Part shown: positions 1,930-2,077 of the stretch, in pieces | Numbering within the stretch: position 1 is the first letter of the stretch | How the letters are laid out: the number at the start of each line of letters is the position of its first letter | Source: Escherichia coli | Lineage (GTDB): Bacteria; Pseudomonadota; Gammaproteobacteria; Enterobacterales; Enterobacteriaceae | Strand: one strand, 5' to 3' | DNA length: 2,077 nt | NCBI RefSeq assembly: GCF_003334405.1 | Contig: NZ_QOWM01000039.1 | Translations under genes and position numbers: made by a program | The notes under the pieces: generated by a model | Database searches by the model: none | Seen by the model: only the letters and a program-made list of their open reading frames with translations | Told to the model about the DNA's origin: nothing

Positions 1930-2077
1930 ATGAACTCTTTTTTTGAACAATATCACCCTGTCTTTGAAGTTGTCTGCCGTATCCTGGGGAACGGCTGGCG
2001 CGTGAACAAACTTGATGATTGTTCGTCTCGTATAAAACTGACGTCACCGCAGTTTAAAAATTACTCTGTGCATATTC
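1930..2077 (+). CDS. Hypothetical protein, N-terminal fragment (ORF continues beyond the window end)
   Basis: ATG at 1930 preceded by SD-like aaggga (1919-1924). Manual translation gives 49 codons with no stop to the window edge (MNSFFEQYHPVFEVVCRILGNGWRVNKLDDCSSRIKLTSPQFKNYSVHI...). Same orientation as the J-domain gene, about 100 bp downstream. Not in the supplied ORF track, probably because it is open-ended. I do not recognise the family. Confidence 0.5.
   Translation, partial: MNSFFEQYHPVFEVVCRILGNGWRVNKLDDCSSRIKLTSPQFKNYSVHI

Follow-up and report, generated by a model that had tools for sequence, protein, structure and literature searches.

In Escherichia coli, the gene for the J-domain co-chaperone CbpA is followed by the gene for its specific modulator, CbpM. 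The stretch of E. coli DNA considered here (2,077 nt, contig NZ_QOWM01000039.1 of assembly GCF_003334405.1; below, the window) likewise has a small same-strand gene of otherwise unknown family after a J-domain gene, and this small gene, which we call ORF180 after its full length in codons, is the subject of the present analysis. The two cases differ in that ORF180 is unlike CbpM, the C-terminal domain of the plasmid J-protein is unlike that of CbpA, and a hairpin lies between the two genes of the plasmid. Other described proteins may resemble ORF180 in their fold. The class I chaperones of type III secretion system (T3SS) effectors are acidic proteins (isoelectric point, pI, about 4–5) of about 120–150 amino acids (aa) with an alpha-beta-beta-beta-alpha-beta-beta-alpha fold. 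Compared with these chaperones (CesT, SycE, Spa15, ExsC) and with YbjN/AmyR and DUF2170, ORF180 has 180 aa, with an extra C-terminal domain of four strands plus a helix; unlike the chaperones it is basic rather than acidic, and it has no sequence-profile match and is encoded on a conjugative-plasmid backbone and not beside a T3SS effector.

The surroundings of the gene are reminiscent of the Frpo arrays of F and ColIb-P9 (Samuel et al., Nature 2024, PMC11541004), where a repeated, structured non-coding element likewise precedes co-directional small genes near oriT. Frpo elements are about 330 nt long (PMC11541004), as against about 414 nt for the plasmid repeat, which shares no sequence with them and contains what looks like a conventional sigma-70 promoter for double-stranded DNA, overlapped by a dyad operator, no single long promoter-forming hairpin being seen.

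The main finding is that ORF180 is a genuine conserved gene, far beyond a chance open reading frame (ORF), and that it belongs to a conserved unit which consists of a promoter/operator, the J gene, a hairpin, ORF180, a gene for an 83-aa protein (orf83) and a gene for an Xre/MqsA-like helix-turn-helix (HTH) protein. As to function, the reading that we tentatively prefer, and which may well turn out to be wrong, is that ORF180 is an accessory binding protein, produced from an autoregulated cassette in the region between two origins of transfer (probably the leading region), and that it gives modest aid to transfer or establishment.

An ATG at positions 1930–1932 (plus strand) starts a frame that continues without a stop to the end of the window (49 codons, MNSFFEQYHPVFEVVCRILGNGWRVNKLDDCSSRIKLTSPQFKNYSVHI). 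The preliminary description of the window had credited this frame with a reasonable start and Shine-Dalgarno (SD) sequence and with a position about 100 bp after the J gene in the same orientation, all of which is borne out: AAGGGA at 1919–1924 precedes the ATG, and 104 nt on the same strand separate it from the TAA stop codon of the J gene. It had also proposed that the full ORF be obtained from flanking sequence. The window is 99.7% identical to pDETEC36 (NZ_CP116128.1), a 30.9-kb IncX4-like plasmid of E. coli with IncX4 plasmids as close relatives, and there the frame extends to 180 codons, with conserved homologues elsewhere; the product (WP_001083906.1; UniProt G8GYH4) is annotated as “hypothetical protein”.

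Relatives of ORF180 number 85 at 90% clustering and form 60 clusters at 50% identity, nearly all of them about 180 aa long, with identities down to 22%. By tblastn, ORF180 was found in 2,061 plasmids of PLSDB, including IncX1, IncX3, IncX4 and IncI2 types, the identity being 100% in 33.3-kb IncX4 plasmids with mcr-1, 94% in IncI2 plasmids of about 60 kb, 68% in 46-kb IncX3 plasmids and about 65% in IncX1. The exact sequence occurs on at least 1,000 contigs, in every case called hypothetical. The ratio of non-synonymous to synonymous substitution rates (dN/dS), determined against homologues at 51–94% aa identity, is 0.11–0.18. A chance ORF can be dismissed because of the many homologues, the spread among PLSDB plasmids and this ratio, and the purifying selection, since it extends over long distances, indicates that ORF180 has a selected function of its own. 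The best-conserved stretch is formed by the first 49 residues, the part within the window, which includes the sole invariant residue, W23. As selection acts on the plus frame, an ORF of 132 aa on the opposite strand (1649–2047) was treated as spurious. Scans of the window with Rfam models and for tRNAs detected no RNA genes.

The N-terminal sequence, which had not been recognised in the preliminary description, indeed has no family match in Pfam, NCBIfam, PHROGs or PADLOC. A Pfam search with ORF180 and 43 relatives was negative, ORF180 gave no meaningful match in NCBIfam, PHROGs or a sequence-profile search of PDB, and the PADLOC search returned only noise (E 0.018); as a known anti-phage defence or anti-defence family ORF180 has neither a PADLOC nor a PHROG match. 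The searches with hidden Markov models and predicted structures that had been suggested yielded no family assignment.

The AlphaFold2 model of ORF180, made from 25 sequences, has a mean predicted local distance difference test (pLDDT) of 92.8 and a predicted template modelling score (pTM) of 0.73. According to this model ORF180 is a two-domain alpha/beta protein, the N-terminal domain probably having a fold of the secretion-chaperone/YbjN/DUF2170 type (secondary structure in Table 1). Conserved positions are an LG.GW turn (with the invariant W23), R80 and a DI.RK helix motif, and no catalytic constellation is present among the conserved residues. Fold searches returned nothing informative from the viral models of BFVD and only uncharacterised proteins from AFDB50. 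ORF180 has a pI of 8.7 and is thus basic, as is its family (median 9.25, range 8.3–9.7), and the N-terminal domain has a pI of 9.9. Such a charge speaks against the protein being a class I chaperone, PsiB-like or a DNA mimic, while it would be compatible with binding to nucleic acids. A DNA mimic of the ArdA/Ocr type was rejected for this reason, as the mimics are acidic.

Two rival explanations were considered. ORF180 might be a donor-side secretion chaperone or adaptor that hands a protein substrate, be it the relaxase, the J-protein or some other product of the cassette, to the VirB-type type IV secretion system (T4SS), in the way that class I chaperones serve T3SS effectors. We consider this improbable, because class I chaperones are acidic and ORF180, like its family, is basic, because at 180 aa it carries an extra C-terminal domain and has no match to the CesT family of Pfam, and because it is encoded outside the T4SS and relaxosome operons and is not up-regulated within the PixR regulon as described. 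ORF180 might also be a structural analogue of PsiB, which would damp the SOS response of the recipient via RecA in plasmids that lack psiB. PsiB, which F-like and IncI1 plasmids encode in their leading region and which inhibits the SOS response, is like ORF180 small and without enzymatic activity, belongs broadly to the fold class that is predicted for ORF180, and comes from a region expected to enter early; ORF180 differs from it in sequence (hhalign against the PsiB alignment: probability 0.4%, E 0.15; no PF06290 match), in size and in its basic charge, and has no published Frpo-type element upstream; moreover, equal scores are reached by dozens of other, unrelated proteins with this fold. 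Such a role is very improbable.

The gene has been met before, in a published transfer screen. The arms of the primers used to delete cds16 match the window at 1891–1932 (cds16-F) and pDETEC36 at 10167–10205 exactly, and ORF180 is therefore cds16 of the IncX4 plasmid pHNSHP23. In the transposon-sequencing (Tn-seq) screen of Yi et al. (mBio 2022, PMC8725589), two rounds of mating left Tn5 insertions in cds16 more than 100-fold rarer (F index), which made this gene one of five unexpected transfer genes, together with tsxA, cds4, cds9 and cds10 (pixR) (PMC8725589). The input library contained insertions everywhere except in pir, tsxB and mcr-1 (PMC8725589), and since they were tolerated there, ORF180 is dispensable for maintenance. 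A Pir-specific helper role in replication was rejected, given this tolerance and the occurrence of the cassette with unrelated replicons (IncI2 RepA, IncN-typed).

The genes that follow ORF180 overlap. The ORF180 stop codon overlaps the start codon of orf83 (ATGA, pDETEC36 10469–10472), and orf83 overlaps the 75-aa HTH gene by 14 nt, the two together occupying 10469–10934. UniProt names the 83-aa and 75-aa products YajB and YajA, respectively. The HTH protein matches the MqsA and Xre antitoxin HTH families (E 2e-5 and 1e-4), and neither it nor the orf83 product has a toxin family match in PADLOC or NCBIfam. Both genes are conserved beside ORF180 in most loci, including those that lack a J gene. 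The two may represent a pair of the repressor or toxin-antitoxin type and might correspond to TsxAB, described for IncX4 plasmids.

By a further rival explanation ORF180 has no transfer role of its own, the screen signal being a polar effect on the translationally coupled orf83 and HTH gene within a maintenance or regulatory cassette. Besides the two overlaps and the antitoxin-type HTH match, this would fit with the toxin gene tsxA being flagged in the same screen while the antitoxin gene tsxB took no insertions (PMC8725589), with the small effect of a clean cds16 deletion (PMC8725589), and with the HTH gene remaining next to ORF180 where J is missing (loci L002 and L011; also L009, where the presence of J is undecidable). 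Against this stand the purifying selection on ORF180 itself over long distances, and the lack of a toxin family match for orf83 and the HTH protein in PADLOC and NCBIfam. We regard the explanation as rather unlikely.

The gene-neighbourhood check proposed in the preliminary description covered 23 loci with an ORF180 relative, taken from PLSDB plasmids, GTDB genomes and metagenomic contigs. In 18 of these, ORF180 is preceded by a J gene in the same orientation, across replicon types (IncX4, IncX3, IncX1, IncI2, an IncN-typed plasmid and metagenomic contigs) and even where ORF180 is only 22–32% identical. The gap usually measures 40–130 nt, sometimes with one small ORF in between, and is 1.36 kb in one case. 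Among the Enterobacterales plasmids of PLSDB the genus counts for J and ORF180 are almost identical, and the identities of both proteins to the window copies fall roughly together across loci.

These observations favour the view that ORF180 is a dedicated partner of the J-protein, be it a client, a substrate adaptor or a modulator, in an arrangement similar to cbpA-cbpM, with the pair recruiting host DnaK. This is compatible with an accessory role in establishment as preferred here, and we hold it to be a possibility worth retaining, if an unlikely one. J homologues and ORF180 do not constantly occur together, each being found without the other. ORF180 has no detectable J gene in Arsenophonus (L002, with an IS3 element upstream) and in L026/L027; none is present in the 570 nt of upstream sequence available on a Pantoea contig (L011), and the upstream flank of L009 is too short to judge. 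Conversely, no ORF180 was found by tblastn in the J-bearing plasmids of Vibrio, Acinetobacter and Enterococcus. Two ORF180-like candidates downstream of the Vibrio J gene were rejected (hhalign probability <1%), and the annotated genes after J in Acinetobacter and Enterococcus are much shorter or belong to other families (DUF3850, SSB, nuclease). Among Enterobacterales plasmids the two genes are thus firmly associated; as a universal rule the pairing does not hold.

The two proteins also evolve unequally. J is still 64% identical where ORF180 is 22% identical, and its dN is 2–4 times lower, from which J appears to be the older and better-conserved member of the pair. A co-fold of J, a 30-residue Gly/Ser linker and ORF180, based on a paired alignment of 14 plasmids, gave a pTM of 0.40 and a mean pLDDT of 75; the parts fold as they do alone, the linker and the J tail are disordered, and no confident packing is seen, which is a weak negative as the alignment was shallow and predicted aligned errors were not available. 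Further points against a dedicated partner are that ORF180 resembles neither CbpM nor any NCBIfam model, that a conserved hairpin or terminator lies between the genes, and that the published screen, while flagging cds16, does not count J among its 18 transfer genes (PMC8725589). The earlier suggestion of ORF180 as a client or partner of J therefore receives no support from the co-fold, the unequal rates or the screen.

The spacer between J and ORF180 is predicted to form two strong stem-loops (RNA fold −41 kcal/mol, z −4.5; Table 1), which do not figure in the preliminary description. A stem-loop directly 3' of the J stop codon occurs in 10 of 10 loci compared, with differing stem sequences; its loop is a GNRA tetraloop (GTAA, GCAA or GAAA) in five of the ten, and T-rich tails follow it in three loci (L006, L007, L008). 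Stem-loop 1 is probably a partial terminator or a stabiliser of the mRNA end, and in some relatives, where a T-run is present, a full terminator. The loop motif of stem-loop 2, GGGCATCGAACCC, is kept in pDETEC36, L004 and L012, and as GGGTATCGAACCC in L013. Because of the conserved hairpin or terminator after J, simple co-transcription of J and ORF180 is not assured; probably the two are co-transcribed with attenuation at stem-loop 1. The arrangement recalls hicAB, present in the same plasmids, where an internal terminator sets the ratio of toxin to antitoxin (PMC11878559). What had been described as a possible two-gene module is correct with regard to the conserved same-strand neighbourhood; the conserved unit, however, is the larger cassette, and J and ORF180 are separated by a hairpin.

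The cassette begins with a repeated non-coding sequence, the 5' 300 nt of which are G+C-rich, while the 3' part comprises a conserved sigma-70 promoter, a dyad, a structured 5' untranslated region (UTR) and an SD sequence. A second copy in pDETEC36 (10970–11383) directly follows the HTH gene and ends at the start codon of the next gene, and an IncI2 plasmid (L021) has three copies (4228–4649, 5126–5382 and 7182–7604). The copies are in direct orientation, each ending exactly at a start codon. Overall, the repeat occurs in 1,191 PLSDB plasmids, commonly at 2–3 and at up to 6 places per record. In an alignment of 13 copies from six plasmids, TTG of the −35 box and TAT.AT of the −10 box are invariant, and the copies share the conserved structured 5' UTR and an AGGAG ribosome-binding site. 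A dyad, ATACGAC...GTCGTAT, spans the promoter spacer and the −10 box. As its sequence changes between lineages while its symmetry is kept, it is probably the operator for a lineage-specific dimeric repressor. As single-stranded DNA the upstream repeat folds strongly (z about −4 to −5), into many small hairpins and not into a single promoter hairpin. Comparison of window positions 700–1320 with 13 published Frpo/ssi sequences (blastn) gave nothing below E 0.4, and an identity of the repeat with Frpo/ssi elements was rejected at the sequence level.

Table 1. Features of the J-ORF180 cassette in the window (nucleotide positions) and predicted secondary structure of ORF180 (residue positions).
Feature	Position	Strand	Details
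Repeated non-coding cassette, about 414 nt	895–1308	+	G+C-rich 5' part, promoter/operator, structured 5' UTR, SD; ends at J start codon
Sigma-70-type promoter, TTGCAA-17 nt-TATTAT	1219–1247	+	TTG and TAT.AT invariant in 13 copies
J-domain protein gene, 171 aa	1310–1825	+	PF00226, E 4e-11
Stem-loop 1, CGGGGGC-GAGAA-GCCCCCG	1832–1850	+	G+C-rich; 7 nt after J stop
Stem-loop 2, CCCGTCTTTTGGG...CCCAAAAAGACGGG	1864–1898	+	
Shine-Dalgarno-like AAGGGA	1919–1924	+	5 nt upstream of ATG; read from sequence
ORF180, 5' part	1930..2077	+	first 49 of 180 codons; gene ends at pDETEC36 position 10472
ORF180 predicted secondary structure	helix 4–19; five strands 24–77; helices 82–93, 97–126		AlphaFold2
ORF180 predicted secondary structure, C-terminal	four strands 130–163; helix 167–179		AlphaFold2

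The location of the cassette on the plasmid bears on its possible role. pDETEC36 contains a perfect 92-nt inverted repeat (6208–6299 and 13184–13275), which corresponds to the long inverted repeats of IncX plasmids; these are reported to carry oriT-beta (near pir) and oriT-alpha (before taxA/ddp1) (PMC3402527, PMC3332091). The 6.9 kb between the inverted repeats hold pir and, downstream of it, a gene that is known as bis in other IncX plasmids and carries no annotation beyond “hypothetical” in pDETEC36, further 22-bp iterons, the J cassette, a second cassette and hicAB. The cassette genes are on the same strand as the relaxase genes taxA (ddp1) and taxC and the T4SS operon, and point towards them. 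From this position between two oriT sites and this orientation we infer that the cassette lies in the leading or establishment region. Distant relatives of the cassette occur in co-directional arrays with ArdA (PF03230) and ParB/KorB, or beside genes for NikA-like and polyvalent proteins.

The preferred reading, an accessory binding protein that aids transfer or establishment, can be phrased as a sequence of steps. The cassette would be transcribed from the conserved sigma-70 promoter in the repeat upstream of J, with the promoter dyad as operator and the HTH protein, whose gene closes the cassette, as its probable ligand. In a newly entered cell, which is free of repressor, a burst of expression would follow, and the hairpin after J would reduce read-through into ORF180. 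The product, a basic (pI about 9), apparently non-enzymatic protein with two predicted alpha/beta domains, would most likely bind a partner macromolecule, either a protein or, given its charge, a nucleic acid, and this binding would give a modest boost to transfer or establishment, with no effect on vegetative maintenance.

Several points weigh against this proposal. With the clean cds16 deletion, transfer in broth fell by a mere factor of about 4, a non-significant change, after which that study dropped the gene and assigned it no function (PMC8725589). A polar effect on the two genes that overlap downstream might account for the Tn-seq signal of cds16. The upstream repeat is without similarity to published Frpo/ssi elements, so that expression from single-stranded DNA is not supported. 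Finally, leading-region status is an analogy, which presupposes that the relaxase gene enters last.

In the J-protein, residues 9–56 make up the J domain; C-terminal to it lies an alpha/beta domain that is conserved and shows the motif GNWVWISG...CKWA.KKKQWFYRP. Judged by the latter domain, the family extends to plasmids of Acinetobacter, Vibrio, Clostridium and Enterococcus and to PHROG 15863 (E 5e-38), with identities of 27–44% in the Vibrio, Acinetobacter and Enterococcus plasmids. On an Enterococcus faecalis plasmid (L030), the J gene (2516–3016) adjoins genes for DUF3850, SSB and a nuclease, just after the relaxase region; this suggests a general role in early establishment for the J-proteins of plasmids and phages.

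Taking J and ORF180 together, a more far-reaching proposal can be made, namely a chaperone-hijacking establishment module that would be expressed in a burst upon entry, ORF180, basic, of the putative secretion-chaperone fold and fast to diverge from one plasmid lineage to the next, acting as an adaptor that binds a host defence or stress factor or the incoming relaxase-DNA complex, and the conserved J-protein recruiting the DnaK of the recipient to remodel or inactivate the target. We consider this proposal speculative and quite unlikely to be right in full.

A few side observations concern the annotation of the plasmid and the 5' part of the window. A 106-aa coding sequence annotated as “molecular chaperone DnaJ” (WP_224693477.1, pDETEC36 10936–11256) lies, except for its first 34 nt, on the second copy of the repeat. 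Since its product neither matches an NCBIfam model nor resembles the genuine J-protein, the call is probably spurious and the name misleading. Tandem 22-bp iterons (TTTAACGGCAAATCCTCTCATG), at pDETEC36 7633–7925, adjoin the pir-like initiator gene, the window starting about 75 nt after them; together, iterons and pir-like gene have the hallmarks of an R6K-gamma-type origin. A 44-nt double-iteron reference matches window positions 622–665 at 61% identity. Positions 1–227 of the window are shared by only six records in each of two searched collections, which hold largely the same plasmids. The remaining IncX4-like matches all start at position 228, and for this reason the pattern is read as a recombination or insertion boundary at that position. 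The segment at about 259–326 (CGCTTCCTCGCTCACTAACTCGCTCCGCTCGGTCGTTCGACTGCGGCGAGCGG...) matches 1,472 plasmids at 90–97% identity, mostly small mobilizable plasmids of Col type; it may resemble the region of the primosome-assembly (n') site of ColE1/pBR322.

With respect to what was known before, the gene had already been encountered as cds16, and the present analysis confirms its neighbourhood and not its function. Any effect on transfer is small on present evidence, and ORF180 is a well-defined candidate rather than a discovery. It belongs to the conserved backbone in IncX3, IncX4 and IncI2, the plasmid types by which blaNDM-5 and mcr-1 are mainly carried. If the chaperone-hijacking module were real, it would constitute a new class of leading-region function on the main mcr-1 and NDM-5 backbones. 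If ORF180 and J do aid establishment in new hosts, they would be a first case of a conjugative plasmid that brings its own Hsp70 co-chaperone system to this end, and they would offer a plasmid-specific target for blocking the spread of these plasmids.
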